Origin: an uncultured Pseudomonadota bacterium
GTDB lineage: Bacteria > Pseudomonadota > Alphaproteobacteria > Rs-D84
Direction: 5' to 3'
Assembly: GCA_902793435.1 (NCBI GenBank)
Contig: CADBDF010000003.1
Location: forward strand, 26,167 to 90,166
Length of the DNA: 64,000 nt
Below, one piece after another: positions 8,230 to 34,693 of the stretch; the stretch's first letter is position 1, and the number at the start of each line of letters is the position of its first letter. A program made the position numbers and the translations under genes. Under the pieces are notes generated by a model. That model made no database searches and was not told where the DNA came from. It worked only from the letters and a program-made list of their open reading frames with translations.

Positions 8230-8233
8230 TATT

Positions 8234-15901: not shown

Positions 15902-16183
15902 GTATTCTGGCATGTATGCCGATACAGATGAAACGCCCGCGGTTCTGCGGGATTTTTCATACATTGACTTCGGTATGGGCGAAAATTGCCCTTTTTTACG
16001 CCATAATATCCTGCTTCCTATACACCCCCCATTTTCCGATAGTCAATACCTTGAAAAATAGCCAGAAAACCCTATATAAACACCGTAATAAAATTATAAA
16101 ACACAGGAGAAAAAATCGCTTTTTTTCATTGAAAACACAAGGTTTTTGTATTACATTTTTCATGAAAATTTATGAGGACAATT

Positions 16184-19300: not shown

Positions 19301-19721
19301 ACTATGGCTTCAAGGATTATTCATGTACAGCCCTTTTGCCAATAGTAATGAATATGTGGAATACGTTGTAAATTCTATAAAAAATAACCATAGCTTTATA
19401 AGTTTTAACTCTGCCAATCTATTTAAAATTTTTATCAAAGGGGGACCGGACATAAAAACTTTAGTAAACCAAATGAGAGCATGTTCATCAGAAAGCGCTA
19501 TAATAGTCGCAACAGAATTTTATAGTAAATTGATAACATTTGACAAAAACACACCACAAATTGCGTTTATGTTGATAGATGCTGTCTTGAATAGTGGCAC
19601 GCATACAGAATATAATATCAGATTAAGAGGCATGTTGGCAATTGCAAAGCACGATGCAATCTTTGACCGAGCACTACATGATTGGTGTACGGGACACTGT
19701 TTACCATATCCACAGGAATAA
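16365..19721 (+). CDS. 1118-aa TPR-repeat protein with a GreA/B C-terminal-like domain and a PIN-like domain
   Basis: TPR-like repeats over about residues 70-620 (e.g. ATLFFKKVFDQQPENSRVAVNLAIMY). Residues ~650-715 (EIYIIEDDPN...SSDVFTKKLMMAEENSNIQLGQNGIECKVININ) fit the GreA/B C-domain pattern. Residues ~815-1010 (GYIIDAITIFN...ETASVIRLAKDKNLNLLSDDYMLRAMA) look PIN-like. Start codon (GTG 16365 or TTG 16374) is uncertain. Confidence 0.7.
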   Translation: MCNLALDKIENHADVLLSTKKIQDSVVANGELAVAAGRDVNIYVQMPANPTPAIMEDSSSRDCKFNKILHRNIDVVKELLNTGQPDKALDEILKIETIYEGELKEPDAKRRLLLNKGTALILLNRPLEGANSYLEGYYCSPDNELSNALRIKAYFIKKDIAGLKKAISEVPEIHRTSRVIAGRILEAIQLDIKNFPTMPAEINEVCFDDVANCLIASKFYSVRGDETNAAKFFNQAKDINPDDWQILAWEGTRYMGDEPQKQPIGAIRSAKDSLEKAWNLIKNQTNVPFAELLYIPINLASAYRLLNMQKEERDLIENLYSRFPEDPDVLLKKILNADDCAEAAQLSDKLDVNKGFYYAGLAAISYINNKQYNKALSVLQKAPHDANYDQLEIDLRTCICYKELNNITAVDNIIKKQKSVAAKKLLMHIKTGNVRDLIQARRFLKPTDCVYIKTEIATRLYKAQLYTEASPVYKEIIKIVGLHDVILSHYLDCLHRTSDVSGMYKVLSSVPNEYINNTILQYWAFYHETMGDNEKATLFFKKVFDQQPENSRVAVNLAIMYHRNDNEEALLKLLDKLPSNLNKMFGDVKAKWQLLHLMYEHKFAMETLPQKAYELITENLYDEESWKNYFTWFMTCLADFKIVNNKTGFILHDEATNTNEIYIIEDDPNIKTNKFFNVLRSSDVFTKKLMMAEENSNIQLGQNGIECKVININNKYVTVGCIIRDQIFIQFPDCDIIRIDGKTPEEAVEKLKRLFNFQNQTQDLIKNYYKEKYLPISTLANMLGKDVISLMEFLATEKLIVSEGSVVEQKDTQKLVNKQAGYIIDAITIFNAFWFHVETMLANVVKDNLYVSQKTIDIFKSLKEEEMRFLKMRGGRLFKTNSEDQKLTFASHEDLKDYQKNKIKMLDDILTWLGENAKIIIPSGASKLSDNKEQLLSFFQEKDLETASVIRLAKDKNLNLLSDDYMLRAMAKKQFEIDGLWLQGLFMYSPFANSNEYVEYVVNSIKNNHSFISFNSANLFKIFIKGGPDIKTLVNQMRACSSESAIIVATEFYSKLITFDKNTPQIAFMLIDAVLNSGTHTEYNIRLRGMLAIAKHDAIFDRALHDWCTGHCLPYPQE

Positions 19722-19733: not shown

Positions 19734-21362
19734 TTAACATCCATAAAACGCAGATTCTTGTTTATCAAAATCTGCGTATTTTTGTGCGATACCGAACAAG
19801 GTTTGCAGGTTCACGTGTGCAGGTACTTCGCCTTCCAGTATGTCGCCAATTATTTTAGGTGACAGGTATGCCAGGTTCATGTATTTATATACCGTTCTAT
19901 CGGCACGATGTTCTGTGCGTTTAATCTGGTCAACCGGAACACCGGCTTCGTATTGCTTTTTATATTTCCATCCGAATGCCAGTGCCTTGGTCAATATCTG
20001 TGCGTTTTCTGTTTTTGTATGTATTGATACTTCGCCACCATCACATCGGTGGTTTATACAGGTTCGCGTATTCACATAGAACTGTGTTTCCACAACCGCA
20101 TATTTACCATCGTTGGTTATATACATATGCATAGGTTCTACTTTTGAATTTATGGTGTCTGTTTTGAATTGTTCCAGATAACCCATGTCGTCAATCTTGA
20201 TGAATATTGCCAGGGCATTTTTGTTAAACACTATTTTATCAACCATTTGTTGCATCAATTCGTCTGAATAACAAGTTTGTTTGAATTCTAATCGCTTGGC
20301 TTCCGGTATAGCAATCATATCAGAATCCAAGAATCTTTTTATCGTATCTGTAACAATCTGTTCCACATCGCCAGCCGGTAATGATATTTTATCGGCTTTG
20401 TAATAGCGGTATTTTTTCAATCTGTTATCTTTGTTGCTTTGTTGGTTCTTGAATATCTGGCCATCCGGTGTTTGTATCTTATTATGCAACAATGATTTAC
20501 CGATGGTGTAACCCGCATTTTTGTGATTGTTGCCATCGTGCAGTTTCTGTTGCACATCGTTAAATAATTTTTCATCAAGTATCGCTTCATGCAATCCGTT
20601 AAATGTCTCTTTGCTTCGCTTGTTTGCAATCTTGCCAATATATACCGGATTTTTCAGGATTCTGTCCAATGAACTGGTGGCTATGATTGTACCACCTTTT
20701 TGTTGGCCTTTGTTGGTTGTCCATGTCTTTCCGCGTATTCCCATATCAATCAGTCGCAAGCGGCAATCTGACATACCAGTACTTATCATATATGTATTAA
20801 ATATCCGGCGGACTGTTTCGGCTTCGGTTTCATTTACCACCAACTTCCCATCGATAACATCGTACCCAAGCGGTGGTATTCCACCAATCCACATCCCCTT
20901 TGCTTTTGTGGCACGGATTTTATCACGCACACGTTCCCCAGACACTTCGCGTTCAAATTCTGCGAACGATAGTAGCATGTTCAGGGTTAGTTTGCCCATG
21001 GCAGTGCTAGTATCGAATGATTGCGTTATGCTGACCAGATTGCAGTTATGTGGTTCAAAATCTTCCTTCATCATGCGTTTAAAGTCATATATGCTACGCG
21101 ACAATCTGTCGATTTTATAAACCAGAACACATTGTATTCGACCAGCTTTGATATCGGCCAGCATTTCCTGTAAACCTGGACGGGCCATCGTTCCGCCAGA
21201 AATCGCCGCATCACTGTAAGTCTTGTAATATTGCCAACCATTAAACGATTGGGAAGCAATATACGCTTTACAAGACTCTTCTTGGTTTTGCAGAGAATTA
21301 AACTCCTGTTCCAATCCATGTTCAGTTGATTTACGCGTATAAATAGCACATCTAATCGTCAT
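19734..21362 (-). CDS. large serine recombinase
   Basis: 542 aa. N-terminal resolvase catalytic domain (CAIYTRKSTEHGLEQEFNSLQNQ, VLVYKIDRLSRS), a recombinase domain (GGIPPLGYD) and a long C-terminal extension. Confidence 0.9.
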   Translation of the reverse strand: MTIRCAIYTRKSTEHGLEQEFNSLQNQEESCKAYIASQSFNGWQYYKTYSDAAISGGTMARPGLQEMLADIKAGRIQCVLVYKIDRLSRSIYDFKRMMKEDFEPHNCNLVSITQSFDTSTAMGKLTLNMLLSFAEFEREVSGERVRDKIRATKAKGMWIGGIPPLGYDVIDGKLVVNETEAETVRRIFNTYMISTGMSDCRLRLIDMGIRGKTWTTNKGQQKGGTIIATSSLDRILKNPVYIGKIANKRSKETFNGLHEAILDEKLFNDVQQKLHDGNNHKNAGYTIGKSLLHNKIQTPDGQIFKNQQSNKDNRLKKYRYYKADKISLPAGDVEQIVTDTIKRFLDSDMIAIPEAKRLEFKQTCYSDELMQQMVDKIVFNKNALAIFIKIDDMGYLEQFKTDTINSKVEPMHMYITNDGKYAVVETQFYVNTRTCINHRCDGGEVSIHTKTENAQILTKALAFGWKYKKQYEAGVPVDQIKRTEHRADRTVYKYMNLAYLSPKIIGDILEGEVPAHVNLQTLFGIAQKYADFDKQESAFYGC

Positions 21363-21792
21363 GTTTTTTCCTTTTGTTTATACCAAAGAAGAAATTACCA
21401 GACATTTTCATGCCTGCGATTTTAGTTGCAACTGCCGACAATGTTGAATATTTGTCACCGTTATATGAAAAACTGCCATCATCATTGACTAAGATGGTGT
21501 ATTTTATACCCTTGAAATATCGGGTTAAAATTGTGCCTGGGACAAAGTTATATTTATTTGGACATGCATGGTCTAAACATTGTTCTGGATTATCCTTGTA
21601 TTTTCGAATTTTTACCAAATATTTATGTTCAATTCGTAGGTTTAAGCGATCACATTGAATATAATACCAAAGCGACCGCAGTTGCCTTTTAAATGGATAT
21701 TGTGAGTATTTTGCCCATAATCGAACTCGTTCATCAAAAGACAATGCTTTCAACTCATCCATCGTCTTTGGCATGTTATCTTTATATGACAT
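21352..21792 (-). CDS. DUF2924-family protein (usual upstream partner of large serine recombinases)
   Basis: 146 aa. GTILTRYFKGIKYTILVNDDGSFSYNGDKYSTLSAVATKIAGMKMSGNFFFG matches the DUF2924 C-terminal pattern. Overlaps the recombinase gene by 11 nt. Confidence 0.7.
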   Translation of the reverse strand: MSYKDNMPKTMDELKALSFDERVRLWAKYSQYPFKRQLRSLWYYIQCDRLNLRIEHKYLVKIRKYKDNPEQCLDHACPNKYNFVPGTILTRYFKGIKYTILVNDDGSFSYNGDKYSTLSAVATKIAGMKMSGNFFFGINKRKKHDD

Positions 21793-21941: not shown

Positions 21942-22814
21942 ATGGATTATGAAAATATTTTCAAGGATTTTTTGGATTTAATTTATCACAATGACATTTT
22001 GCCAAATGAAATTGTTTGTGTTTTAGAAAAATATAGCAAAAACAGAGATTTTCGGTTAATTTGTGATTTATTGTATTATAAAGAGAAGTATTGTAAAACT
22101 GCTGGCGATCCAAGGACACAACAATTTTATACGGAATTGACTATGCATGCTCGCGCTTTACAGGACATCAATATTTGGCGAGACGCAATGTCGTTAAATA
22201 ATTTAAGCTATTTGAAAGCCGCTCTTAATAATGACGCTCATAATGATACTCATAGGTCGGATCCTGCAATTATTAAACCGATGATGCAACAATTGATAAG
22301 GGCAGCCAACTTAAAACCTGATGGATATCTCATTAATAATATCGATAAAAAATATACGCAAAACACTACAAATCTAAACTCAGATAAAATACTTACACTA
22401 GATAATTTAAAAATTGGTGATGAAGTAGATCATCATTTTTTACGTGATCATTTTAAAATCAATATTCAACGAGGTATGCACTTTAAACAAAAGATAATTT
22501 TAATATCTAAATTTTCTGCTTATGCGGATGAAGAAAGAGACGGCATATTACATTATTTGGGACATAATATTGTAAACGATCATGGAGGTAAATTTAATCA
22601 AACACGAACCGGAGAGAATGAGAGATTTTGTGATGCGATTGATAATTTTAAAAAGGGCGGCCAGGTTTCGTATTTTAAAATTTTTCAAAAAAGAAACAAA
22701 TGGATGTACAAAGGAGAATACGCTCTGATAGATTATAATTATACAGGTTCTAAAAATCCAAATGATATAAATTCTGATAGAAAAGTATATGAATTCTTAT
22801 TACGAAAAAAATAG
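21942..22814 (+). CDS. hypothetical protein; C-terminal half possibly an SRA/PUA-like modified-base reader
   Basis: 290 aa. GILHYLGHNIVNDHGGKFNQTRTGENERFCDAIDNFKKGGQVSYFKIFQKRNKWMYKGEYALIDY loosely follows the Y.G.GG...Q.l..gN.al...g.pv.vf.....y.Y.G.Y pattern of SRA-type readers. Weak call. Confidence 0.3.
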   Translation: MDYENIFKDFLDLIYHNDILPNEIVCVLEKYSKNRDFRLICDLLYYKEKYCKTAGDPRTQQFYTELTMHARALQDINIWRDAMSLNNLSYLKAALNNDAHNDTHRSDPAIIKPMMQQLIRAANLKPDGYLINNIDKKYTQNTTNLNSDKILTLDNLKIGDEVDHHFLRDHFKINIQRGMHFKQKIILISKFSAYADEERDGILHYLGHNIVNDHGGKFNQTRTGENERFCDAIDNFKKGGQVSYFKIFQKRNKWMYKGEYALIDYNYTGSKNPNDINSDRKVYEFLLRKK

Positions 22815-22823
22815 GCAATTTGA

Positions 22824-24107
22824 ATGAAGTTGCAAGAAAAATTAAATAATATTTCAAAAACATCAAAATTATCTTTATTGAAAGACGGCCGGTCGGTTGA
22901 TTTGGATGAGTTTTGGACCACATTTATAGAACCTTTTCTTCCGCCCAAAAAAGCAGTTGAGGGTTGGCATAAAATTTTGAAGAAATATATAAACGAAAAA
23001 AATGCTATTTTTTCGATACGGAAGTTTGGTAGTTATCGTGATAACAAAACAAAAGATCGCAAAACGTTGAGGCGCGGGTTCCTTAACCTAACAAATCTTG
23101 GTATTAACGCATTTTTTATTGATAATTTTTTTACATCGTATTTCTTTTCAATGGCTTATGATGGTTATGTGCCTGATTATAATGATTTCAAAGAAATGAT
23201 GCTCTCTAGAAAATTTCCGTGTGGCTATATTGTTACCAAAACAGAAACTGCACTCGCCGCATTTCATAAAGGAAAAGATCCACGTATTCAATATAAAGGT
23301 TATAAAATAGCACATATTCATGACGCTGGTCGTGATTTTAATATATCAAATATCAAGACAGTTGGTGATTTTTGTAAATTGTTTTTCCCATTAGGAGAAT
23401 ATGATGATTGGAAAGCCATAAAAAAAGATAAAAATGGACCTTATCACTATAGAAATTTATCGATAAAAAAAGACGACCAAAAACTTGTAAAACAGTTTCT
23501 GGTTGCGCATTTTTTACGAACGGTTCATCCCATAAATTATTTCTTGGTTCCTAAACAATTTTGTATTTCCTTTGTTAATGATAAGGGTGAAACCAAATAC
23601 GAAATTGGCGAATACGAACCCCTTATTAAATATGTAAGACAAAAAATCAAACAACGATACGGTGCAATTTATAATCAATATCTTGCATTAATTAAACGTA
23701 TCGATGACGAACAAACAGAGCAAGAAAACATTATTATAAATGCGGTTTATGGTTTAAATGGTTTTAGAAAAAACAAATCTAAAAAAACAACAAAAAAAAT
23801 TAAAACATTGAAAAAATCTAGCGGTTCATCAGGCATAGGGAAAATTGTACGAGAAACACTAATTCCTGGTCTGAACAAAATTCCGTCGGCAGAGATCAAA
23901 AAACTGCAAACTAAACAGTATTCCAAGAATACTTTTGATATAAATTATCCTCTTTTATCTAAAAATAGATTTGATAGCAATGGTCGTCCACGTTATTACG
24001 CTACACCAATACGAATTAATGGTGCTGATTGGTATGTTTGTCAGGAATGGTATGCCAGATGTGAACCCAAATTAAGGGTATGGTTAGCATTACATAACAT
24101 AGGTTAA
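22824..24107 (+). CDS. hypothetical protein; possible His-Me finger (HNH-like) nuclease
   Basis: 427 aa, starting 10 nt after the previous gene. KIAHIHDAGRDFNISNIKTV and LVAHFLRTVHPINYFLVP resemble H-N-H cores lacking Cys ligands. Has a Lys-rich linker and a C-terminal RPRYYATPIRINGADWYVCQEWY module. Weak call. Confidence 0.3.
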   Translation: MKLQEKLNNISKTSKLSLLKDGRSVDLDEFWTTFIEPFLPPKKAVEGWHKILKKYINEKNAIFSIRKFGSYRDNKTKDRKTLRRGFLNLTNLGINAFFIDNFFTSYFFSMAYDGYVPDYNDFKEMMLSRKFPCGYIVTKTETALAAFHKGKDPRIQYKGYKIAHIHDAGRDFNISNIKTVGDFCKLFFPLGEYDDWKAIKKDKNGPYHYRNLSIKKDDQKLVKQFLVAHFLRTVHPINYFLVPKQFCISFVNDKGETKYEIGEYEPLIKYVRQKIKQRYGAIYNQYLALIKRIDDEQTEQENIIINAVYGLNGFRKNKSKKTTKKIKTLKKSSGSSGIGKIVRETLIPGLNKIPSAEIKKLQTKQYSKNTFDINYPLLSKNRFDSNGRPRYYATPIRINGADWYVCQEWYARCEPKLRVWLALHNIG

Positions 24108-24121: not shown

Positions 24122-24694
24122 TCAGTTGTATTCGCTTGCTAATTTGGTGAAAAAGCATTCGTCGTGGTATATGCCGTCGGGCGTCAATAAATATTGGCGG
24201 TTTATTCCATCAAGGTGATAGCCTGATTTAATTATAGAATTATATGAACGGATGTTGTCTTTGATACATTGGCGGCATATTCTGTTCGCCCCCAGTTGTT
24301 CAAAGGCGATTTTTTCTATTGTTCTGTGGATTTCTTGATTAAACCCGTTTCCCCAGTATTTTCGCGCCAACCAAACAGATGAACATTCAAGTGTTTTATT
24401 ATCCGGACAATAATATATTCTTTGATAGCCAATTAGTTCATTATTAAAAAACACAAACCAATCTATCCCCCTGTTTTGACAACGATTATGATAATATTGC
24501 ATTACATGCAATGTGTCTTCTTGTGATGTTGGTAAAATACTTTCCAGTCTTGAAGAATAAATAAAATCATCTGGATTTTCATTTTTTAATACGTTCCACA
24601 CTAATAGTGCATTTTCTTCATTTGGTTCAAGAATACGCATTTCCAAACGCTCTGTTTTTATATTATGACCAAATAACTCAAAAAACTTTTCCAT
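24122..24694 (-). CDS. GNAT-family N-acetyltransferase (RimJ/RimL-like)
   Basis: 190 aa. WGNGFNQEIHRTIEKIAFEQLGANRICRQCIKDNIRSYNSIIKSGY fits the acetyl-CoA-binding core of the Acetyltransf_3 type. Confidence 0.7.
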   Translation of the reverse strand: MEKFFELFGHNIKTERLEMRILEPNEENALLVWNVLKNENPDDFIYSSRLESILPTSQEDTLHVMQYYHNRCQNRGIDWFVFFNNELIGYQRIYYCPDNKTLECSSVWLARKYWGNGFNQEIHRTIEKIAFEQLGANRICRQCIKDNIRSYNSIIKSGYHLDGINRQYLLTPDGIYHDECFFTKLASEYN

Positions 24695-24705
24695 TTGTGT
24701 TTCCT

Positions 24706-25047
24706 CTATTTTTCAGGAATATCTCTTAATGTATATTCTGGTATATTATTGCCACATTTTTCTTTTAAAATAGCACGAAAATCTGTTGCAAATCTGTCTG
24801 GAATATCTCTATTTACGTTTTCATCATCTGGCATTTCATCAGAAAAAATGTAATCCACTACGCATTTACAAGTTTTTTTGTTGTCTGCCAATTTTATGTC
24901 TTTGAATTCTTGTGCCGCATGTTTTACACAATCTTGGTATTCTTGTTTAGCTATATCATCAATCATTTTATTCCAGGCGTTTTTAGTATCGTTACTGTTA
25001 TCACAAGCACATATAAACAAAGATAATATTATAAATATTTTTTTCAT
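24706..25047 (-). CDS. small secreted protein or possible lipoprotein
   Basis: 113 aa with N-terminus MKKIFIILSLFICACDN. Lies 11 nt upstream of the GNAT gene. Confidence 0.5.
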   Translation of the reverse strand: MKKIFIILSLFICACDNSNDTKNAWNKMIDDIAKQEYQDCVKHAAQEFKDIKLADNKKTCKCVVDYIFSDEMPDDENVNRDIPDRFATDFRAILKEKCGNNIPEYTLRDIPEK

Positions 25048-25082
25048 AACACCCCCTTTTTATTCGGCAATATACCATAAAT

Positions 25083-26552
25083 TTATTTGTTCGTATAGGT
25101 AAATATTACATCCAACAATCGAACCATTGCCAAGGTATCTTGCCCGCAATATTCACGCAGATTTTTCATCATTTCTTCTGTTTCCTGTGGCGTTTGATTT
25201 CTGTTCATAAAATCTAAAAATTGGCTGCTGGCTTCTGTTCCGTTATGAATCCCCAGGGTTTCATAGGACAATTCCGGAACAAACGTGGGCAATGTTTTTT
25301 TGATTGATACACTACCGTTTTGACAAGGACAATACAGACCACGATTTTTAAATGGTTCTTCTAAATCTAAAATGCGTTCATTTATTGATGATAGTTTTTT
25401 GGCAAACTCTGGAAAATCAAAAGCCATTTCACAGTTACGGCCTTTTTCAAATGTTTTGTGATAGACGACTACTGAACCCGTATCACCGATTACATCACAT
25501 AACTTTTTCAATAGTCCTGGTCTAGGGTCTGTTTCTGGGTTGTCGTGTAAATATTCATAATGTTCCAATTTGCCGCCAGGCGTCCTTTGCACATGTAATG
25601 AAAATTGAAAACAAATTTGTTGATAGGCGTGCGAATTATCAAATATCGGCACCGCCGACATAATTGTTTCATAATCAAGAAAGTATAAAGGCCATTGCAA
25701 ATTATTCGTAAATTGTTTCAAGATGTTTAGATTGATTACATCTATATTATCTAAAAACGCTTCTATATCCCCGGAATGCTGTTGTTTATAGTAAATATCG
25801 ACAGGAACATTATGCAAATCAGCACCATATTTTGCATAAATTTCGTCTGCCAATTTTCCTTTGAATGCATCAAAAACTGAATACTGTGGCAAATCTTTCC
25901 AACAATGACATTTATATTCGCATTTATAGAATTTATTGTTACATTTCGTCTTAGAAATAGCGATGCCAAGTTCTGGACCAGACAGAAATGCGCGTATACG
26001 ATTTATTTCCGATTGCACCGTTTCCATATCTTGCATTTTACCGGCTACATCGTGCAAAGCGAACAACTGTGCCAAATCTAAATCACCATGGCGAATATAT
26101 TCTTTATTTAGTGTCATTACAAAGCAATTACGAACCTTGATTCCACAGTGGTTTAATACATACCTCTGAAAAGAAACATCTAAATAGTGATATTCATGTG
26201 GTTCTGGATTCGATTTTACCTCTATAATATCCCATGTTCCGTCATTGTTGTTTTGTAAAATATCAACAGCACAATATTCATCAGTATCGGTGCAAAATGT
26301 CGCTTCATAGATGTATGACGCATTTTGTGTGATGGCTTTTTGGGTTTGTTCTATGGCTTCTGGTTCCCAAGGCTTTGCAGTGATGCGAACGCCTCCAGGG
26401 AATCTGTCACATGCTAATTCACCAACAGCAGTTCCAGCATCCAATATTGCTTGATTTTTGTCGGATTCTATATCTTTACGATATTTTTTGAACCACAACG
26501 CATTCGGGCATTTAATTCCAGTTACATAATCAGACTTTGATATTTTTATCAT
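25083..26552 (-). CDS. DUF2779-family protein (Cas4/PD-(D/E)xK-like N-terminal nuclease plus C-terminal domain)
   Basis: 489 aa. The N-terminus MIKISKSDYVTGIKCPNALWFKKY is the characteristic DUF2779 start. DIIEVKS fits a PD-(D/E)xK core. Cys cluster CNNKFYKCEYKCHC. Confidence 0.6.
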   Translation of the reverse strand: MIKISKSDYVTGIKCPNALWFKKYRKDIESDKNQAILDAGTAVGELACDRFPGGVRITAKPWEPEAIEQTQKAITQNASYIYEATFCTDTDEYCAVDILQNNNDGTWDIIEVKSNPEPHEYHYLDVSFQRYVLNHCGIKVRNCFVMTLNKEYIRHGDLDLAQLFALHDVAGKMQDMETVQSEINRIRAFLSGPELGIAISKTKCNNKFYKCEYKCHCWKDLPQYSVFDAFKGKLADEIYAKYGADLHNVPVDIYYKQQHSGDIEAFLDNIDVINLNILKQFTNNLQWPLYFLDYETIMSAVPIFDNSHAYQQICFQFSLHVQRTPGGKLEHYEYLHDNPETDPRPGLLKKLCDVIGDTGSVVVYHKTFEKGRNCEMAFDFPEFAKKLSSINERILDLEEPFKNRGLYCPCQNGSVSIKKTLPTFVPELSYETLGIHNGTEASSQFLDFMNRNQTPQETEEMMKNLREYCGQDTLAMVRLLDVIFTYTNK

Positions 26553-26563
26553 AATGATTCCGT

Positions 26564-27250
26564 TTATTTTATCTCCAGTTTAATACCTGTTATTCCTTTT
26601 TCACGCCAATTTCCTAAATACCCGGTGTGCAAATTACCGCTTAAACTGGAAGTTGGTTTAAAATTGTTAACTTGCCATACATGTTGGGTTGCTGATTTAT
26701 TCGTATAAAACAAAGTAACAAAAACCGTGCATATGGAGGTGTCGCGCAGATGTTTTTCAAATTCTTTACCAGAACATTCGCGACCGTGTAAAAAGTATTT
26801 TTTGTCTAGAGCTGTTGATTCATGAACATTTTTTATACTGGCCGTTTTTGTTGTGTGTGTTCGTTTTTTTGCATTTTTGATGCTTTCTGCCTTGTATACA
26901 AAAAAACTTTCATCTATTTTGCCATCATCGTATTTTCTGTGGCATTCTTCACATAAAAAATGAAAATTTGCAAGATCCTTTGAAAAATTTACAAAAGATT
27001 CTTCGAATCTATCTAAATCGACATGACAAATATCTCCTTCTTTTGAATATGTTGATTCTTCAAAAAAGTTTCTTACTAAATCCTTTCTTTCAAAGCCATG
27101 TTTGTGTGCGGATTGAATTTCTTTTTCTTTTGTACCACAACATGCACAAATACCAGATTTATATTTTTGTGTTAAATCTCGTGTTTTATTACGTGCATAT
27201 CCATCAAAAAATTTTTTAAACGTTTTATAATCACCTACGAACATATTCAT
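26564..27250 (-). CDS. HNH-motif endonuclease-like protein with an unknown C-terminal domain
   Basis: 228 aa with ICACCGTKEKEIQSAHKHG and FHFLCEECHRKYD (CxxC...H...CxxCH). Confidence 0.55.
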   Translation of the reverse strand: MNMFVGDYKTFKKFFDGYARNKTRDLTQKYKSGICACCGTKEKEIQSAHKHGFERKDLVRNFFEESTYSKEGDICHVDLDRFEESFVNFSKDLANFHFLCEECHRKYDDGKIDESFFVYKAESIKNAKKRTHTTKTASIKNVHESTALDKKYFLHGRECSGKEFEKHLRDTSICTVFVTLFYTNKSATQHVWQVNNFKPTSSLSGNLHTGYLGNWREKGITGIKLEIK

Positions 27251-27273
27251 TATGCATCCTTTTATTTAAAAAA

Positions 27274-27444
27274 CTAATTTCCTATTTGTCCTGTTTCATT
27301 ATCATACAATACTATGCGGCCGAAACTTGCGCAATTTGTTTCTTCTAATTTACGCAATTGCTCTTTGGCTGCGTCATACGAAAAATAAATTTCAGGTAAA
27401 ACACAGTTGTTAAATATAATTTTCCATGCTGTACAAGTTGCCAT
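27274..27444 (-). CDS. 56-aa hypothetical protein (below the ORF-track cutoff)
   Basis: My translation is MATCTAWKIIFNNCVLPEIYFSYDAAKEQLRKLEETNCASFGRIVLYDNETGQIGN. AAGGGGA lies 6 nt before the ATG. About 23 nt gaps to both neighbours. Confidence 0.45.
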   Translation of the reverse strand: MATCTAWKIIFNNCVLPEIYFSYDAAKEQLRKLEETNCASFGRIVLYDNETGQIGN

Positions 27445-27467
27445 TGTTTTCCCCTTTGGTTGTTAAT

Positions 27468-28915
27468 TTAAAAACCTATTTTTGTTTGTTTTTTATGTAA
27501 ATCTTTGACCTGTTGTTCCTGACGTAATCTGGATAACAGTTCAGATTTATCTGTAATTCCTAGTAAATCTGCTTGTTTTTTTACAACAGCAAAATCACCA
27601 GGTGCTAAATTCGTTAAATCAGCAATTTCTTCCTTGGAAATTTGTTGATTAAAAAAATCTTGAAAAGCCATAATGACTTGGTCAGGTTTTAAGAATTCGT
27701 ATTTAACCTTGAACGAAAACCTGCGAAGCGCGGCTTTATCTATATTGTCCATCAAATTAGTCGTGCAAACAAACGGATAGTCCGCATTTTCCATCTGAGC
27801 CAACATTTCGTTTACAGAACAGACTTCCCAAGAACGCGCTGCTCGGGTTCTGTCCATAAGGAAACTGTCTGCTTCATCGAAAACCAGCATTACTTTTTTT
27901 GCACGTGCTTCCGCAAACGCACGGGCAATATTCTTTTCTGTTTGACCTACATACATACCGTTTATATCGCTGGCACGTTTTTTTATTATGTTTATGCCCA
28001 ACAAATCAGCCAGATGTTCACAAAATGCGGTTTTCCCTGTTCCTGGTTTGCCGTATAACAAAATGTTTATACCAGTTTTTTTGAGTTAATACCACCCGTT
28101 AAAATATCTGATATCTTGTCAAAATCATCGACCATATAATCAAAATTGTCGCGTTTTAAATTCGCGGATAAAGAGGCACCAATCAAGACATCGCGAACGT
28201 CCTTGCACTTGTCAAAATTCATGGTTAGTAAATTCAAAAACATTGAACTGAATGAATTATCACCATAGCGATGTTTTTATATCCCCGATTCTGCCAATAC
28301 GCCAGTTTGAGACATGATTTCTTTGACTTTTTCCGACGGTATTTTACATATTGCAGATACAAAATCTGCATTTATATCGTCCATAAAATCATTACTGATT
28401 CCATCATTGAAACAACAAAGTAATCTGCGTAATTGAGAATTTTTTTTAATAAACACCAAAAATTGCAATAAAATTCGACTATCGTTCGGCAAATCAAAAG
28501 TATCACAAATTATGGTAAAATTTTTATCAAAATCTGGATTGGTAATATCGGTGTCAAAATCTGATTTGCGGACATCAAAAATATTAGACACACGTTCATA
28601 CAAAGCATCTTCGGCTAGTAAACTGTTCCGACATAATTTGCCATTTAGTAAATTTATAAGGAATTCAGCCTTTTCGTTTGCAGAAACACGTTTTTCACCA
28701 CTATTAATCAGGTCACGCAAATTAAACCCAAACAAATCGGTCGAATGCCTTGACAGATGATGAAAGAACATATCTGTATCATCTGGTTCGTATTCGCTAC
28801 TCGTTACATTTTTCAAATAATGCATCGCCAGTTGTCTGTCTTTTATATTCATATTTACGCCTTTTTTCGGGGTTCGTGGGTAATATAAATACCATGCTGG
28901 ACAAAAACGGTCCAT
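27468..28915 (-). pseudogene. AAA+ ATPase gene interrupted by one nonsense codon and one frameshift
   Basis: The 28277-28915 ORF ends at TAA (28277-28279), but the same frame stays open for 69 more codons. At the A7 run (28076-28082) adding one A joins ...TGGINSKK to TGINILLYGKPGTGKT (Walker A), with VMLVFDEAD (Walker B) and the rest of an AAA+ core following. Confidence 0.7.
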
Positions 28916-28989: not shown

Positions 28990-29133
28990 ATGCCAGAATC
29001 ACGCAATAGTTATAAAAAATCAGATATTCATTTAGAACTTATCAATGAATTACGCAAAAGATATATGACACTTACAGATATTCGTGACTTTTTATTTGTT
29101 AATATTTTAAATTTGGCATTGTTTTTTTATTAA
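28990..29133 (+). pseudogene. truncated N-terminal remnant of a WYL-type regulator
   Basis: MPESRNSYKKSDIHLELINELRKRYMTLTDIRDFL aligns with MAEARDNYKKTDLKLELINELRSRSMTRNDIKTFL of the 31125 gene (about 20 of 35 identical). Similarity is lost after ~35 codons, where the convergent 29099-29833 gene begins. Confidence 0.65.
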
Positions 29134-29833
29134 GTTCAACTTTATGTGACAATAATTTATCAACTGTTGATAACATGTCCATTTTTATGACCTTTATACA
29201 ATTTTTACAAAAGTATGTTTTATACATATCGATACTTTTGGGGTCATTTGAATCTTTTGTGTTTACAACTATTGTTATTTCATAACCAGGTATTTTCAAA
29301 CAATATGCATATTTTCCAGCAAATCTACCTGGGGACATACCGGTTGCATAATTTGATGGGTGTTCTACCTCTTTTTTACAAATTATTGGCAAAAACAAGT
29401 CTGGTTGTATTTGTACTTTATCTGTTAATATATCGAATGCAATTTGTTGATATTTTTTTAAATCGACTCTTTTAGAAGAAATGCCACAACGCCATAAAAC
29501 AGACACAAAGAATTTATAAAGTTTTTCATAATCAAATTTATCGGACTGAATATTATATATATTAAATCCATCGCTTATATCTGTTGATGCATTTGGTATA
29601 ATATCGTAAAAGAATTTTTTGGCATAATTATCAAAAACACCGAGTTTGTTATCACAATCTGCACATAAAAGACATTCTTTATAACCATTTTGTGCATTAG
29701 GGTTCATATCAAATTTTGTGGTTGCATTTATCCCAACCATTCTACCTTGGTTTGTTGCATGTAAACACTTTGGTATAATGTGTGATTGTACCAATTGTTT
29801 TTCTTCGCCACAAAATTTACAAATTCCTAACAT
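29099..29833 (-). CDS. hypothetical protein with N-terminal CxxC...SHIIPK motif
   Basis: 244 aa. MLGICKFCGEEKQLVQSHIIPKCL plus a second Cys pair (CLLCADCDNKLG). No family assigned. Confidence 0.5.
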   Translation of the reverse strand: MLGICKFCGEEKQLVQSHIIPKCLHATNQGRMVGINATTKFDMNPNAQNGYKECLLCADCDNKLGVFDNYAKKFFYDIIPNASTDISDGFNIYNIQSDKFDYEKLYKFFVSVLWRCGISSKRVDLKKYQQIAFDILTDKVQIQPDLFLPIICKKEVEHPSNYATGMSPGRFAGKYAYCLKIPGYEITIVVNTKDSNDPKSIDMYKTYFCKNCIKVIKMDMLSTVDKLLSHKVELNKKTMPNLKY

Positions 29834-30245: not shown

Positions 30246-30265
30246 AATCCCTCACCATCCGCCAG
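30246..30265 (+). repeat. right-hand direct repeat of the tRNA-Ser 3' end
   Basis: aatccctcaccatccgccag is identical to 15883-15902. Confidence 0.9.
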
Positions 30266-30352: not shown

Positions 30353-30958
30353 ATGGAATATCTTGATATTTATGACGAATATATGAATAAAATCGGCACC
30401 GAGACCCGAGACATAGTTCATCAAAATGGTTTATGGCACAAGACTGTTCATTGTTGGATGTATGACGATGATGGAAATGTATATTTTCAAATTCGTGCAG
30501 ATTCTGGTAAGCTATATACTACCGCATCTGGGCATGTATTGGCGGGGGAAACAGTGCGAGATGCTTTCCGTCGCGAAATATTCGAAGAAATCGGTATTAA
30601 CACCGATGCATCAAATGCTGTCGCATTAGATATCGTATTTTGGCGTCAAGATAAACCACAAAAAAACTGGCACGATCGTGCATTTGCGCATATTTATGCA
30701 AATAAACTGCCGATTGACTTTACAGATTTTCATTTTCAGCCCGATGAAGTTGCTGGATTGGTTCGTATAAACGCAAAAGATTGTCTTGATTTGTTAATGG
30801 ATAAACATACTTCTGTCCGTGCAATAAAAATTACAGCCGATAAATCAACAGATATCGATATTACAAAAAACGATTTTCTGGCTGCGTCTAATGAAACACC
30901 TATTGTAAAATATGGTTTTGTATTGCAAAGCATCATCCAACAAAATTCGCATATTTAG
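30353..30958 (+). CDS. NUDIX hydrolase
   Basis: 201 aa with the Nudix box GHVLAGETVRDAFRREIFEEIGI. Confidence 0.85.
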   Translation: MEYLDIYDEYMNKIGTETRDIVHQNGLWHKTVHCWMYDDDGNVYFQIRADSGKLYTTASGHVLAGETVRDAFRREIFEEIGINTDASNAVALDIVFWRQDKPQKNWHDRAFAHIYANKLPIDFTDFHFQPDEVAGLVRINAKDCLDLLMDKHTSVRAIKITADKSTDIDITKNDFLAASNETPIVKYGFVLQSIIQQNSHI

Positions 30959-31079
30959 GTATGGAAATTTGTGCAACAGAATTATAGTCCGCCAGAAAAA
31001 TCAAATGTCCTTTTGGGGCATTTTTTTGTTTTATTATTTTTGAATTTATTTGGACAAAATTGGTCCAGATACAACTTGT

Positions 31080-31101
31080 GTATAAAAAAATTTTTTGATA
31101 G
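31080..31101. promoter_or_regulatory. AT-rich near-palindrome upstream of the WYL gene (candidate operator)
   Basis: gtataaaaaaattttttgatag, related to 28927-28946. Confidence 0.4.
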
Positions 31102-31124
31102 CATATCTTTTAAAAGAGGCAATT

Positions 31125-32186
31125 ATGGCAGAGGCACGCGATAACTATAAAAAAACAGATTTAAAACTGGAACTTATTAACGAATTACGTTCCAGAAGTA
31201 TGACACGTAATGATATTAAAACATTCTTGTCAAACCAACGCAAGATGTTAGGCAAAGTTCCTGTGACATGTATGAATCCTGAAAAATACAAAGTTAGCGA
31301 TAAAACCGTAAAACGCATAATTGATTCTATTGATGAATTGTATGGTGACCAATTAGATTTTAACCCTGAATTTAAAACATACAAATTGGATTTACACGAT
31401 TTTCCAGACACTATCAATGAAACAGAAATTCAGGCTTTGGATGTTGCTTTACAAAAAATGAAAAACAACACAAATGCACGCAAATCATTAGAAAATTTAA
31501 AAGCAAAATTATCAACCAGGTTATACCGAAAAATAAAACACACCGAACCCACCAGTGCAATCCGTAAAATATATGATGCCGAACAAAATATAAATTCGAA
31601 CTATGCAATTGTTGGTCCGCAATTAATTGTAAAATTTGACGAAAGCGTTAAAACTTTGTTAGATAATGCCATTTCTAAACGACACGAGGTTCAATTTAAA
31701 TATTACAACAAAAATGTCACTGTTCAGCCCGTAGGAATTATACACAGTTCAAACAATGTATATTTAATCGCATTTGAAAAAAACGCAAAAAAAGATATAG
31801 ACAAACCGCGACATTATAAACTGGCCGAAATTTCCAATTTAATTGATACAAAACAATGGTTCCCAGATGACCGTCATTTTTCATTACAAGAATATGCAAA
31901 TTCTATGTTTGGGGTGTATAATGATGGGAAAACATATGATATAGACTGGTTAATCACAGACCCACAAATCATTAGTGTTGCAAAACAATATATGTTTCAC
32001 CCGACACAACAATTTATCGAAAATCCAGATGGCAGTTTAACAATTAAAATGCATACCGGCGGATTGCGGGAAATCAGTTGGTTTTTGATAACATGGAACG
32101 GAAAAATTGTCCCAACCGCACCCACAGAATTAATTGATGAATATAAAAAAATATTATCCAGTTGTTGGGACAGTGTAAAAAAATAA
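31125..32186 (+). CDS. WYL-domain transcriptional regulator (HTH-WYL-WCX architecture, CapW/BrxR/PafBC-like)
   Basis: 353 aa from ATG 31125 (AAGAGG 7 nt upstream). N-terminal HTH-like segment. Central VQFKYYNKNVTVQPVGIIHSSNNVYLIAFEK...PRHYKLAEISNLI fits the WYL pattern. C-terminal DGSLTIKMHTGGLREISWFLITWNGKIVPTAPTELI fits WCX. Confidence 0.75.
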   Translation: MAEARDNYKKTDLKLELINELRSRSMTRNDIKTFLSNQRKMLGKVPVTCMNPEKYKVSDKTVKRIIDSIDELYGDQLDFNPEFKTYKLDLHDFPDTINETEIQALDVALQKMKNNTNARKSLENLKAKLSTRLYRKIKHTEPTSAIRKIYDAEQNINSNYAIVGPQLIVKFDESVKTLLDNAISKRHEVQFKYYNKNVTVQPVGIIHSSNNVYLIAFEKNAKKDIDKPRHYKLAEISNLIDTKQWFPDDRHFSLQEYANSMFGVYNDGKTYDIDWLITDPQIISVAKQYMFHPTQQFIENPDGSLTIKMHTGGLREISWFLITWNGKIVPTAPTELIDEYKKILSSCWDSVKK

Positions 32187-32532
32187 TCCGCATAAAGCGG
32201 ACTATTTTTTATCAGGATTCAATGGGAGTTGTATTCGGGGCCAAAACCTTAAAAAGCCTTTACAAAAAAGAATCCCTATAATTTGGTAGTCAAAGCATAC
32301 TTACTTTGTCCATTAATCATTATTTCATAATTCTGTATGGGATTCTGTAAGACTGTTTTCGTATATTTTTATCGTGATTGTGTTTATTTTCTTGGCAACA
32401 TCTGCATCAGTTTTAGTTTTGGCAAAATCATTTAATTTTATACGTAGCCTTTCAGTCAATATTGATACATCGCCATCAACAAACATGCGAATATTAAATT
32501 CCCCAGATTCAATTGATGGAATAATTTTTGTT

Positions 32533-33360
32533 TTAAAAATGCGATTTATGTTTGTTTTGGTTATATAAAAATATTGAATAAATAAATATAGCCAAACCAA
32601 CCATAAACAACACCCCAGAGAGCAATTGTCCCATGGTTAATCCCCACGATGTCAAAAATCCAATTTGTGCATCAGGCGCCCGGAAAAATTCGCAAACAAC
32701 GCGTATAATCGCATACAGCATGCCCATTATACCGGCAATTGCGCCAGGACGTTTTTTTAAGTTTGTATATTTATACAACAACAACATCGTTGTAAATAAA
32801 ACTATGCCTTCGCCAAAGGCCTCGTATAACGGACTGGGGTGACGGGGCGCAATTTCGTTTTGTCCGTTAAAAACAACTCCCCATGGCATATTGGTTTCGC
32901 GACCCATGACCTCCATATTTATAAAATTTGCAATACGACCAAAAAATAGTCCCATTGGCGCAACCACGGCCGCCAAATCCAGCATGCGTAAAAAACTGAC
33001 TTTTTCATGATATGCAAACAGTAATGTGACCAATATAACACCAGTTAGCCCGCCATGAAAACTCATACCGCCATGCCACAGCGCAAATATTTCCAATGGA
33101 TGTGCAATAAAAAATGGCAAATTATAAAATAAAACATAACCTAACCTGCCCCCTAAAACAACACCCAAAATCACCCATGTCATATAATCGTCATATTGTT
33201 TTTTGGATAATTTCAACCCAGAATCTGGGGCGCGTGCCAATTTTGCAAACAACCAAAACACCAATATAAATGAAACGATATATGCCAGCGCATACCAACG
33301 AACATCAATACCAAATACAGAAAACGCGACCGGCGATATAGGATTTATAACGATTGCCAT
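32533..33360 (-). CDS. lgt: prolipoprotein diacylglyceryl transferase
   Basis: 275 aa polytopic membrane protein with WHGGMSFHGGLTGVIL and GRIANFINMEVMGRETNMPWGVVF. Confidence 0.9.
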   Translation of the reverse strand: MAIVINPISPVAFSVFGIDVRWYALAYIVSFILVFWLFAKLARAPDSGLKLSKKQYDDYMTWVILGVVLGGRLGYVLFYNLPFFIAHPLEIFALWHGGMSFHGGLTGVILVTLLFAYHEKVSFLRMLDLAAVVAPMGLFFGRIANFINMEVMGRETNMPWGVVFNGQNEIAPRHPSPLYEAFGEGIVLFTTMLLLYKYTNLKKRPGAIAGIMGMLYAIIRVVCEFFRAPDAQIGFLTSWGLTMGQLLSGVLFMVGLAIFIYSIFLYNQNKHKSHF

Positions 33361-33457
33361 TTTTTATTTCCTTTCTTGCCACAAGTGTAAAAATATACAG
33401 ATAAAAACACAATAAAAAAACACCGAAAAAATTCGGTGTTTTTTTATAAATCATATT

Positions 33458-33742
33458 TTACATATATTGTTTATAGTTGATACCCAAACGCACCAATTCA
33501 TCACGAGCACGACGTGCGGATTCGACCCAGCCCAACACGCGACTTTCATAATCTTTGGCCTTTTGTGTGTCGCCGGATTTCCTGATTTCGTTCCATTTTG
33601 CGTGAAATGCAGATACGCATTCCATTGCATCACAAAATTGGCGGATTCTGTCCCCAGATGTATGCGTATGAATATTTTCTTTTAATGTATTCAACGGTGT
33701 CACCGGAGTTATCCCCCTAAACTTTCTTGCATCTTTTGCCAT
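33458..33742 (-). CDS. hypothetical protein
   Basis: 94-aa ORF with AAGAGGGAAATAA directly before the ATG and a bidirectional terminator downstream (33413-33445). No recognised domain. Confidence 0.45.
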   Translation of the reverse strand: MAKDARKFRGITPVTPLNTLKENIHTHTSGDRIRQFCDAMECVSAFHAKWNEIRKSGDTQKAKDYESRVLGWVESARRARDELVRLGINYKQYM

Positions 33743-34003
33743 TTATTTCCCTCTTGGTTTTTGTTATTACATAGCGTAATATAATACAAAATATTTGTTT
33801 TGTCAAGCATTAGTTGAATAAAAAATTTTTCAATATGCCTTTGCCGACAAAAAAAGCCAGAAACACAAACAATACCGAGCCACAGTATTAAAATTTCTTA
33901 GTTATGCAATTCGTGTGCAATAACTAAATTTTGTGTTTTATTCTTGAATTTTTGGGGTAATTGTATTATATATCACACGATATAAACAAAGGAGAAAAAA
34001 AAC

Positions 34004-34693
34004 ATGAAACAGGCTGTAAATAATATGGACCGGTATTTAAAGAAAATATTTGCATTAATGTTTGGTGCGGTTGCTTTGACCGCGGTTGCAACATATTTAA
34101 CAATATGGGGTGGCGGATTGCGCTATTTAATCAGTGATGGTGGTTTTTCGGTTTTATATTATGTGTTGCTGTTTGGTGGTTTGGCTTTTTCAATTTGGGC
34201 CCAGGTGCGTGCATTTTCGATGAAGCCTGCAACGGCGGCATTGATGCTGATGATTTATGCGGCAATTATTGGAATTACAATGACACCATTGATTGCGGTT
34301 AGTTTGGCAATTCACCCTGCGGCGATTTTATATGCGTTTATATTGGCATCTGCTATGTTTGCATGTATGGCATTGTTTGGATATAAAACCGTCAAGAATT
34401 TATCTGGATTGGGTATATTCTTGTTCATGGGAATGATTGGTTTGATTTTGGTTGGTATTGCATCAATGATTTGGCCATTGGGTTCGACATTTTCTATGAT
34501 TGTATGCTATATCGGCGTTTTGGTATTCGCGTTATTCACTGCGTATGATATGCAAAATTTAAAGAACGCATACAACACATTGGGTAATGATGAAACACAA
34601 AAAAATCAGTTGGCTGTGTTGGGGGCTTTACATTTATACATTTCGTTTATTGCGATGTTCCAATATCTGCTGAGTTTATTTAACCGCGATTAA
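34004..34693 (+). CDS. BAX inhibitor-1/YccA-family membrane protein
   Basis: 229 aa with seven hydrophobic helices and the family-typical FTAYDMQNLK near the C-terminus. Confidence 0.8.
   Translation: MKQAVNNMDRYLKKIFALMFGAVALTAVATYLTIWGGGLRYLISDGGFSVLYYVLLFGGLAFSIWAQVRAFSMKPATAALMLMIYAAIIGITMTPLIAVSLAIHPAAILYAFILASAMFACMALFGYKTVKNLSGLGIFLFMGMIGLILVGIASMIWPLGSTFSMIVCYIGVLVFALFTAYDMQNLKNAYNTLGNDETQKNQLAVLGALHLYISFIAMFQYLLSLFNRD

Follow-up and report, generated by a model that had tools for sequence, protein, structure and literature searches.

A tight minus-strand gene cluster was analysed in a 64,000-nt stretch of contig CADBDF010000003.1 from an uncultured alphaproteobacterium. Throughout, the window means this whole stretch, and labels L001 to L214 denote surveyed loci elsewhere. 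The cluster combines a broken gene for an AAA+ ATPase (AAA2) with genes for a 56-aa protein, a 228-aa protein with an HNH motif, a DUF2779 nuclease, a 113-aa predicted lipoprotein and a GNAT acetyltransferase, and it faces the remnant of a WYL-domain regulator across a conserved palindrome. On balance, the data favoured its interpretation as a decaying, island-borne copy of a conserved, undescribed module.

Layout and state of the minus-strand cluster

Six co-oriented open reading frames (ORFs) occupy the minus strand from 24122 to 27468 onwards, in the order GNAT, 113-aa, DUF2779, 228-aa, 56-aa and AAA+. Their coordinates bore out the compact arrangement reported in the initial annotation, with intergenic gaps of 11, 35, 11, 23 and 23 nt, and a terminator scan found no minus-strand terminator-like site between the cluster genes. 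The cluster and its upstream region contain the following features.

24122 to 24694, minus strand: GNAT acetyltransferase of the RimJ/RimL type, 190 aa, a passenger (PF13302, 47.9 bits, cut-off 25.4)
24706 to 25047, minus strand: 113-aa predicted lipoprotein, a clade-specific passenger downstream of DUF2779 (signal and Cys read by eye)
25083 to 26552, minus strand: intact DUF2779 protein, 489 aa, with an N-terminal Cas4-like PD-(D/E)xK domain, four Cys and a C-terminal DEDD-type 3'-5' exonuclease domain (Pfam, alignment)
26564 to 27250, minus strand: 228-aa HNH-motif protein with a C-terminal domain of about 100 aa of no assigned function, in a variable slot (family alignment)
27274 to 27444, minus strand: gene for the 56-aa protein, an AAA2 partner in one subclade (ribosome-binding site AAGGGG, pN/pS)
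27468 to 28852, minus strand: AAA2 pseudogene, a tandem (type II, Cdc48/p97-like) AAA+ gene (BLASTP against the 689-aa homologue P0014; nucleotide alignment with the L007 gene)
28029 to 28052, minus strand: junction of a 684-nt in-frame deletion between the two Walker-A-coding repeats of the AAA domains D1 and D2 (P0014 and L007 alignments)
28076 to 28082, minus strand: A7 run with a 1-nt deletion (A8 in L007) that causes a frameshift (nucleotide alignment with L007)
28277 to 28279, minus strand: in-frame TAA nonsense codon in AAA2, Leu in homologues (three-frame reading, homologue comparison)
28882 to 28887, minus strand: TATATT, a candidate -10 hexamer for the promoter of the AAA2 operon (in a 15-locus alignment, conserved at a distance of 10 nt downstream from the operator)
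28898 to 28914, no strand assigned: palindromic operator TGGACCGTTTTTGTCCA (TGGAC-N7-GTCCA; alignment of 15 divergent WYL/AAA2 intergenic regions)
28990 to 29094, plus strand: remains of the cis WYL regulator, reduced to the first 35 codons of its winged helix-turn-helix (wHTH) domain, in an ORF that continues to 29133 in unrelated sequence (tblastn)

The Pfam matches in the cluster were Acetyltransf_3, DUF2779 together with Cas_Cas4, and AAA; nothing was obtained for the 113-aa, 228-aa and 56-aa products. In the window, the ATPase and the cis regulator are lost, whereas the 56-aa gene and the HNH, DUF2779, lipoprotein and GNAT genes are intact. The full intact arrangement, with one extra 132-aa gene, was found in L194 and L195.

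The AAA domain recognised in the initial annotation was confirmed by Pfam, but the gene that carries it is not intact. Three-frame reading resolved it into three fragments: the ORFs 28915-28277 and 28243-28067 share a frame, and the AAA domain lies in another. BLASTP aligned the window sequence to residues 1-275 and then 491-689 of P0014, which has two AAA domains, and nucleotide identity to the L007 gene was 94.9%. The 684-nt deletion near 28034 joins the Walker A motif of D1 to D2, so that an N-domain and a single chimeric AAA domain are left in place of the two. The start codon was placed at 28852-28850; the ATG at 28915 was rejected as spurious because it lies inside the operator. The broken sequence recurred with 100% identity in L193 (across 9.4 kb) and in L196 (across 4.45 kb). 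Since these two assemblies derive from different samples, the lesions were taken to be biological, and sequencing or assembly error was rejected as their source.

The DUF2779 protein matched PF11074 with 151 bits (cut-off 23.3) and PF01930 with 29.2 bits (cut-off 22.7). In a 16-sequence alignment, D97, E111, K113, C15, C204, C211, C217, D293, E295 and D472 were invariant; by reading, D97, E111 and K113 were mapped to the nuclease motif and D293, E295 and D472 to that of the exonuclease. The Cas4-like N-terminus and Cys cluster noted from sequence alone were thereby recovered. Members of this family combine a Cas4-like PD-(D/E)xK domain with a DEDD 3'-5' exonuclease domain, and their function has not been established (PMC3985635, PMC13621843). 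With its D..ExK motif, four Cys and DEDD-type residues, the window protein is a genuine member of PF11074, like solo Cas4/DUF2779 proteins such as MMSYN1_0389. It differs from CRISPR-associated Cas4 in lacking a CRISPR context: the surveyed neighbourhoods yielded no cas genes, and within the cluster only the DUF2779 protein matched Cas models. With RecBCD and AddAB it shares a nuclease domain of the RecB/Cas4 family; unlike them, it has no helicase domain and couples two exonuclease domains of opposite polarity in one 489-aa protein.

Coding capacity of the 56-aa ORF, first proposed from its ribosome-binding site, was supported by the AAGGGG sequence upstream and by purifying selection (pN/pS 0.08-0.38 at pS 0.45-0.8). 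Its family comprises 26 clusters, all of 42-80 aa, confined to one AAA2 subclade. The gene always follows AAA2 (L004, L007, L008, L011, L012, L015, L090, L189, L194), even where HNH and DUF2779 are missing (L011, L015, L189).

For the 228-aa protein, the HNH assignment held at the level of the motif and found no counterpart among the Pfam HNH models. Thirteen homologues were found, and the motif CxxC...H...N..H..CxxCH is conserved in the family. In a 15-sequence alignment, C35, C38, H49, C100, C103 and H104 were invariant or nearly so, and the Asn and His of the NFHF motif were read in most rows. The protein thus has the conserved motif of HNH (beta-beta-alpha-Me) endonucleases without a curated-model match: Pfam, NCBIfam and PHROG gave no match, and PADLOC gave a weak 'Effector Endonuclease' match (E 0.0026). 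The slot that it occupies is variable: L090 and L189 have another gene there, L014 and L017-L019 have none, and L197 and L198 carry a broken HNH gene. Short HNH homologues were also found without AAA2 or DUF2779, beside a restriction-modification system, beside an ADP-ribosylglycohydrolase gene or in an lgt-proximal variable region.

Domains are shuffled at the position after the 56-aa gene (window 26564-27250, L189 2285-3256, L090 2222-3262). Protein P0013 of L189 joins a non-HNH N-terminus to the C-terminal domain of the window HNH protein, and L090 encodes a 346-aa protein with a P0013-like N-terminus and another C-terminus. In L190-L192, P0009, a 252-aa relative of the HNH protein, is consistently followed by an ADP-ribosylglycohydrolase gene; the same ADP-ribosylglycohydrolase family also occurs after AAA2-WYL on Leisingera and Fuscovulum plasmids.

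The N-terminus of the 113-aa protein, MKKIFIILSLFICAC, was read by eye as a lipoprotein signal with its Cys, in agreement with its earlier description as a small exported protein; no Pfam, NCBIfam or PHROG family matched it. The RimJ-like GNAT assignment was likewise confirmed by Acetyltransf_3. It had been left open whether these two genes belong to the operon. Homologues of the 113-aa gene followed DUF2779 in L001, L004, L007, L090 and L193-L197 only. For GNAT, L193 and L194 have an intact gene, and L001, L007 and L090 a truncated one. Both are passengers, syntenic with the cluster only in close relatives.

The WYL regulator, its operator and the intact AAA2 family

The divergent, palindrome-separated WYL remnant reported earlier was substantiated by comparison with other genomes. 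The first 35 residues of the 47-aa ORF 28990-29133 matched, at 54-86% identity (tblastn), the start of WYL proteins from 17 loci in which the WYL gene diverges from AAA2; the WYL domain itself is missing from the remnant. In 15 divergent WYL/AAA2 intergenic regions, the element TGGACC..TTTTGTCCA, equivalent to TGGAC-N7-GTCCA, was nearly invariant. It occupies the -35 position of the AAA2 promoter, where no good -35 hexamer was found by reading. An inverted-repeat tool run on the intergenic region did not report the operator, which was revealed by the multi-locus alignment. The terminator scan flagged its hairpin; a role as terminator is unlikely because the hairpin lies between divergent genes and its sequence is conserved.

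Two exact copies of the operator core were found within the window. The second stands upstream of an intact regulator gene.

31051 to 31067, no strand assigned: second operator copy TGGACAAAATTGGTCCA, outside the island described below, with its AAA2 partner missing (operator-core search of the window)
31125 to 32186, plus strand: WYL363, an intact paralogous wHTH-WYL regulator with a putative WCX domain (PF13280, 33.8 bits; DriD relatives)

At this second site, the place expected for AAA2 is taken by the 3' end of a NUDIX gene, about 95 nt from the operator. WYL363 matched PF13280 well above the cut-off of 21.8 bits. Its score for PF25583 (WCX) was 22.6 bits against a cut-off of 23.9, and its alignment to DriD reached residue 338. 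The best relatives of solved structure were the DriD entries 8tp8 and 9pfq (E ~6e-18) rather than CapW or BrxR, and WYL363 was 47-63% identical to the WYL genes beside AAA2 in L004-L019.

WYL regulators of the DriD class sense single-stranded DNA (PMC9186387, PMC11662680). The DriD palindrome lies over the -35 position of promoters with poor -35 elements, and from its own bidirectional promoter DriD activates the divergent operon but not its own gene (PMC13004042, PMC9186387). The module regulator has the wHTH-WYL architecture of DriD, with a putative WCX domain, and its palindrome likewise covers the -35 of a divergent operon with a poor -35 of its own, the DriD target being CCNA_03891. The operators differ (TGGAC-N7-GTCCA versus ATACGTCCGTTTCTGGCGCA for DriD), and the regulated genes are not alike. 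Two further features set the module apart from DriD, CapW, BrxR and PafBC: in distant clades its WYL gene lies inside the operon, downstream of AAA2, and the cis copy in the window is cut to 35 codons. By homology, the WYL protein would sense single-stranded DNA and act at the operator, probably as an activator. In the present genome, WYL363 is a candidate that might drive the residual operon in trans through the intact operator and promoter.

A search for intact versions of the ATPase was successful. Relatives of about 690 aa have a tandem, Cdc48/p97-like AAA+ architecture with a novel N-domain; among 8000 candidates, 4034 proteins scored at E <= 1e-10, the best-scoring being of 650-720 aa. 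PF00004 matched intact homologues twice. In an alignment, Walker A and B were invariant or nearly so in both AAA domains, and a YVG pore loop was conserved in D2, from which two competent ATPase sites are predicted. An AlphaFold2 model of an intact homologue (pLDDT 83.5) was matched by Foldseek to Cdc48, p97, Rix7, NVL and AFG2 across both domains (probability 1.0, E ~1e-17, ~520 columns), and the best matches of the sequence profile were Cdc48 and VAT (E ~1e-22). By homology, AAA2 is predicted to assemble into a hexameric unfoldase.

Membership of the CDC48 family by sequence was rejected despite the Cdc48-like fold, as the score against the curated family TIGR01243 was 61.1 bits with a cut-off of 802.65. 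AAA2 shares with Cdc48, p97, VAT, Rix7 and AFG2 the tandem D1-D2 domains of the classic clade and an aromatic pore loop in D2. It differs from Cdc48/p97 in being bacterial, WYL-linked and encoded with nucleases, and in its N-domain, which is helical with a winged-helix-like hairpin rather than a double-psi barrel. A 255-aa model of this domain (pLDDT 89.6) was helical with one winged-helix-like beta-hairpin. In the Protein Data Bank (PDB), it had no fold match (best E 0.76) and no sequence match at E up to 10. The modelled domain appears to be a new fold, and its family comprises about 110 clusters at 50% identity (E <= 1e-10).

Profile searches placed the cluster in no known system. The PADLOC-DB v2.0 component models gave only generic AAA matches (IetA, TRIP13) and a Cas4 domain match for the cluster proteins. 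The AAA2 match to IetA reached 109 bits on the AAA core, the same stretch (residues 489-631) to which the match to the NCBIfam model for IteA/IetA, NF042959, was confined (97.9 bits, cut-off 510). The SpoVK-family ATPases of CoCoNuT (extended Type III-A) systems (PMC11090510) resemble AAA2 in being tandem p97/CDC48-like AAA+ proteins near nuclease-fold proteins in predicted defence neighbourhoods. They differ in having C-terminal LRR and beta-barrel domains of their own and in accompanying McrBC-type GTPases, whereas AAA2 keeps both ATPase sites, an N-terminal extension and the company of WYL.

A phage origin of the module was rejected: among 2.9 million viral contigs there were 12 AAA2 and 7 DUF2779 matches, with one phage record, although phrog_10401 does match AAA2 (E 1e-87). 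Paralogues of AAA2 can accumulate, with three in tandem in L074 (8001-14500, a deltaproteobacterial metagenome-assembled genome, MAG) and two in L083.

Recurrence of the module and its setting in the genome

Co-localisation was surveyed by context look-ups and an 80-locus scan of species-representative genomes, clustered, which gave 84 AAA2 loci in total. The sources were mostly gut and rumen alphaproteobacterial MAGs, including 'Candidatus Enterousia', and also Planctomycetes, Elusimicrobia, Deltaproteobacteria and further phyla. The core genes of the cluster were indeed found together in other genomes. A WYL gene stood beside AAA2 in 64 of the 84 loci, divergent and upstream in the close clade, and co-oriented and downstream in distant clades. 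DUF2779 lay within 8 kb of AAA2 in 15 of the 80 species-representative loci, making it the third most common neighbour, in at least six gene orders. It directly followed AAA2 in L014, L017-L020 and L027, followed the 56-aa and HNH genes in L007 and L012, and stood last in the order AAA2-WYL-PDDEXK_4-DUF2779 in L046, L058 and L067; other orders were seen in L043, L053, L062 and L071. In a reverse scan of 80 metagenome loci selected for DUF2779, WYL was adjacent in ~19 and full-length AAA2 was present in 6-7.

An intact triad in a cultured organism, AAA2-DUF2779-WYL, was found on a plasmid of Rhodoferax antarcticus DSM 24876 (NZ_CP019242.1, 55735-60349; WP_076072477.1, WP_076072480.1, WP_076072483.1), adjoining McrBC-like, macro-domain and PLD genes. 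Because the three genes co-localise in varied gene orders and in distant lineages, including on this plasmid of a cultured bacterium, their association is real and spans distant lineages. The recurrent linkage of DUF2779 to WYL and AAA2 was not found described for solo Cas4/DUF2779 proteins in the searchable literature.

Each pair among AAA2, WYL and DUF2779 also occurs without the third gene, and DUF2779 is the commonest of several interchangeable third partners. The PDDEXK_4 nuclease corresponds to the PADLOC candidate PDC-S26 and a NERD-like protein to PDC-S11; MBL/RMMBL, HNH_3, GIY-YIG and DUF6994 proteins are further partners. Co-oriented recC-recB-recD genes are tightly spaced with AAA2 in L005, L010, L011 and L189, and RecCBD or AddAB-like genes in other genomes take the position of DUF2779 downstream of AAA2(-WYL). 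ADP-ribosylglycohydrolase, HEPN and AddAB-like partners were found on Leisingera, Fuscovulum and Novosphingobium plasmids, and an SNF2-related operon follows AAA2-WYL in Pantoea. In L214, on plasmid NZ_CP035707.1 of Sphaerotilus sulfidivorans (30490-34651), the order is WYL-AAA2-SIR2, with SIR2 overlapping the stop codon of AAA2; the BREX-2 genes pglZ and brxD lie ~2 kb upstream of the locus. A census of 45 one-off neighbours revealed no universal third component; it was mixed, with McrBC, PIF1 and PDDEXK_9 but housekeeping genes too.

The unit originally proposed, AAA+ / 56-aa / HNH / DUF2779, was therefore not the one conserved. The conserved unit was instead the tandem AAA+ protein with its WYL regulator and swappable partners, a two-gene core with interchangeable effectors, though the observations leave room for doubt. 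Decay recurs in L001, L004, L008, L197 and the window. The losses comprise AAA2 and most of the 56-aa gene in L001, and HNH and most of DUF2779 in L004; in L008 only a DUF2779 fragment is kept. L001 was considered as proof of an HNH-DUF2779 pair independent of the ATPase; this was rejected because the locus retains a 3' remnant of the 56-aa gene, which identifies it as a truncation of the same arrangement.

In the window, the entire cluster lies within a 14.4-kb island at a tRNA-Ser gene, bounded by two identical 20-nt repeats that have no flanking similarity.

15883 to 15902, plus strand: left copy of the 20-nt direct repeat AATCCCTCACCATCCGCCAG, the 3' end of tRNA-Ser and left island boundary (repeat search)
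30246 to 30265, plus strand: right copy of the 20-nt direct repeat, right island boundary (repeat search)

The island holds a TPR-GreAB-C-PIN gene, a large serine recombinase with DUF2924, two unassigned genes and the cluster, as well as orf244 and the WYL remnant. The genes nrdD and nrdG (5876-8935) are outside it, as are a NUDIX gene, WYL363 and lgt, and it is in this same lgt/nrdDG neighbourhood that other genomes keep AAA2-WYL. By its sequence context, WYL363 with the second operator resembles a resident module copy from which the ATPase has been lost. Given the island bounds and the lgt/nrdDG synteny elsewhere, the genome would carry a resident copy without AAA2 and an island copy with dead AAA2 and WYL.

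The first large gene of the island (16365-19721), next to the serine recombinase, has a 1118-aa TPR product that includes a PIN domain of the TPR-GreAB-C-PIN type (PF20698). That large serine recombinase is the sole recombinase in the island, which is unusual for a tRNA-end repeat of such length. Between DUF2924 and GNAT, two co-oriented genes for 290-aa and 427-aa proteins lie 9 nt apart (21942-24107); they are identical in L193, and neither protein had a Pfam, NCBIfam or PHROG match. The product of orf244 (29099-29833) gave weak PHROG matches, and the 3' end of the gene abuts the exact point at which the homology of the WYL remnant is lost. A homologue 40% identical (L002 and L003 3956-4684) directly adjoins a serine recombinase, from which orf244 is ~8 kb apart in the window. 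A large serine recombinase with DUF2924 (window 19734-21792) was found within a few kb of DUF2779 in L002/L003, L097, L157 and the window, four independent loci, and DUF2779 may be a common cargo of this element family.

Four further features were noted outside the island: one for a NADAR-domain protein directly after nrdG (8939-9397), a fragment resembling phage Mu protein F (11717-12322) and, upstream of tRNA-Ser, genes for a MafB19-like or cytidine-type deaminase (13368-13952) and for a protein with NERD and a topoisomerase-type zinc ribbon (14942-15685).

Proposed function and alternative explanations

The initial annotation had proposed an uncharacterised defence module under a WYL regulator of the CapW/BrxR type. 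WYL control and the uncharacterised status stood, and the regulator type did not, the closest relative being the activator DriD. We lean towards a module of WYL, AAA2 and a swappable effector that most likely serves anti-phage or anti-plasmid defence. Its observed basis consists of gene content, lesions, the conserved operator, the Cdc48-like fold, catalytic residues and recurrent co-localisation; the defence role itself, and remodelling by AAA2 to give the effector access to DNA, are inferred from context only.

In this scheme, the WYL domain would sense single-stranded DNA arising from phage or plasmid replication or from DNA damage. The regulator would then switch on the operon, in keeping with the match between its promoter geometry and that of the activator DriD. 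The hexameric AAA2 unfoldase would remodel or strip proteins, probably at DNA ends or on the effector, after which the co-encoded effector would act. In the present cluster this would be DUF2779, whose Cas4-like 5'-3' nuclease and DEDD 3'-5' exonuclease could resect or degrade DNA; elsewhere, RecBCD, AddAB-like, PDDEXK_4, SIR2 or SNF2-linked genes would fill the same position.

Several points weigh against a defence function. AAA2-WYL occupies a conserved chromosomal position between lgt and nrdDG in many MAGs, and this synteny suggests vertical inheritance. Some AAA2 copies lie directly upstream of housekeeping recCBD, and DriD, the closest characterised relative of the regulator, governs a response to DNA damage. 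JCVI-syn3.0 has a quasi-essential DUF2779 protein, and the DUF2779 C-terminal domain resembles the repair exonuclease MrfB (PMC13621843). Only a minority of the one-off neighbours matched PADLOC models, and some of these neighbours are housekeeping genes. The survey relied on a simple ORF picker and BLAST clustering, PLSDB annotation is incomplete, and many of its loci are phylogenetically related. All members of the module are known from genes, sequence comparison and models, and both AAA2-effector contact and the substrate of the unfoldase are pure inference.

In a possible, if less probable, alternative, the module is a DNA-damage repair or tolerance unit of the DriD/PafBC type rather than an immune system. 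Single-stranded DNA would induce a Cdc48-like extractor, to remove proteins from damaged DNA, and an end-processing nuclease (DUF2779, RecBCD or AddAB), to repair breaks. Beyond the DriD-like regulator and promoter, the conserved position near lgt and nrdDG across species and the quasi-essential, MrfB-like DUF2779 protein of a minimal Mycoplasma, this alternative draws on the tight spacing of AAA2 with recC-recB-recD in the four loci named above and on the AddAB-like genes after the AAA2-WYL pair on plasmids. However, the partners swap among unrelated effectors, including SIR2, HEPN and PDDEXK_4 (PDC-S26), with McrBC-like genes nearby and one locus beside BREX; the module is patchily distributed across gut-associated phyla; plasmids and a tRNA island carry copies; and pseudogenes are frequent. 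All this is commoner in conflict systems than in repair pathways.

It is improbable that the genes form no functional unit at all and are independent island cargo whose tight spacing reflects genome compaction only. HNH homologues do occur in unrelated contexts, the lipoprotein and GNAT genes are syntenic among close relatives only, DUF2779 is often without AAA2 and AAA2-WYL often without DUF2779, and parts persist after the loss of others in the window, L001 and L004. Against this stand the AAA2-WYL adjacency in most loci, the constant position of the 56-aa gene after AAA2, and the company of DUF2779 with AAA2 and WYL in its several gene orders across Alpha-, Beta- and Deltaproteobacteria, Elusimicrobia and environmental metagenomes.

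Still less credible is a service to the mobile element itself, namely an establishment or anti-defence function switched on by incoming single-stranded DNA. Copies are carried by conjugative or mobilizable plasmids and by the tRNA-Ser island with its large serine recombinase, a serine recombinase with DUF2924 lies near DUF2779 in L002, L097 and L157, and phrog_10401 matches AAA2, but most loci are chromosomal and syntenic, most are without linked conjugation genes, and viral matches are as few as given above.

Membership of a divergent IetAS (Gao_Iet) or another catalogued ATPase-based defence system was effectively refuted and rejected: IetA/IteA, also a classic-clade AAA+ ATPase, gave the best PADLOC and NCBIfam matches of the AAA domain (E 6e-19 to 9e-32), but the NCBIfam score was about one fifth of the cut-off, the match was confined to the generic core of the AAA domain, of which IetA has one and AAA2 two, and the subtilisin-like serine protease IetS, which IetAS requires, was found neither in the window cluster nor among the recurrent or one-off neighbours of the surveyed loci.

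Within the defence interpretation, a bolder and unlikely version would make AAA2 and WYL the core of a new immune class, in which a Cdc48-like unfoldase induced by single-stranded DNA licenses effectors of the DUF2779, RecBCD, AddAB or SIR2 type. Licensing could consist in stripping away phage-encoded proteins that protect ends or counteract RecBCD, or an auto-inhibitory partner, of which the 56-aa protein could be an example, and the module would then be a prokaryotic counterpart, for defence, of p97-driven protein extraction from chromatin. No description of a WYL-AAA2-effector module was found in the literature on DUF2779, on WYL-AAA+/SpoVK or on Cdc48-like anti-phage proteins.

If the module serves defence, it would add a family built around a type II, Cdc48/p97-like unfoldase, a motor type that none of the systems in the searched libraries has as a core component, and it would show effector swapping between nucleases, SIR2 and helicase-nuclease machines. 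Rhodoferax antarcticus is a cultured carrier that makes the defence question directly testable, and single-stranded DNA acting through a defined operator provides a testable regulatory input. The DUF2779 family gains its first reproducible genomic partners, WYL and AAA2. The copy in the window is a pseudogenised relic, whose value lies in pointing to this family and in exemplifying rapid module decay.

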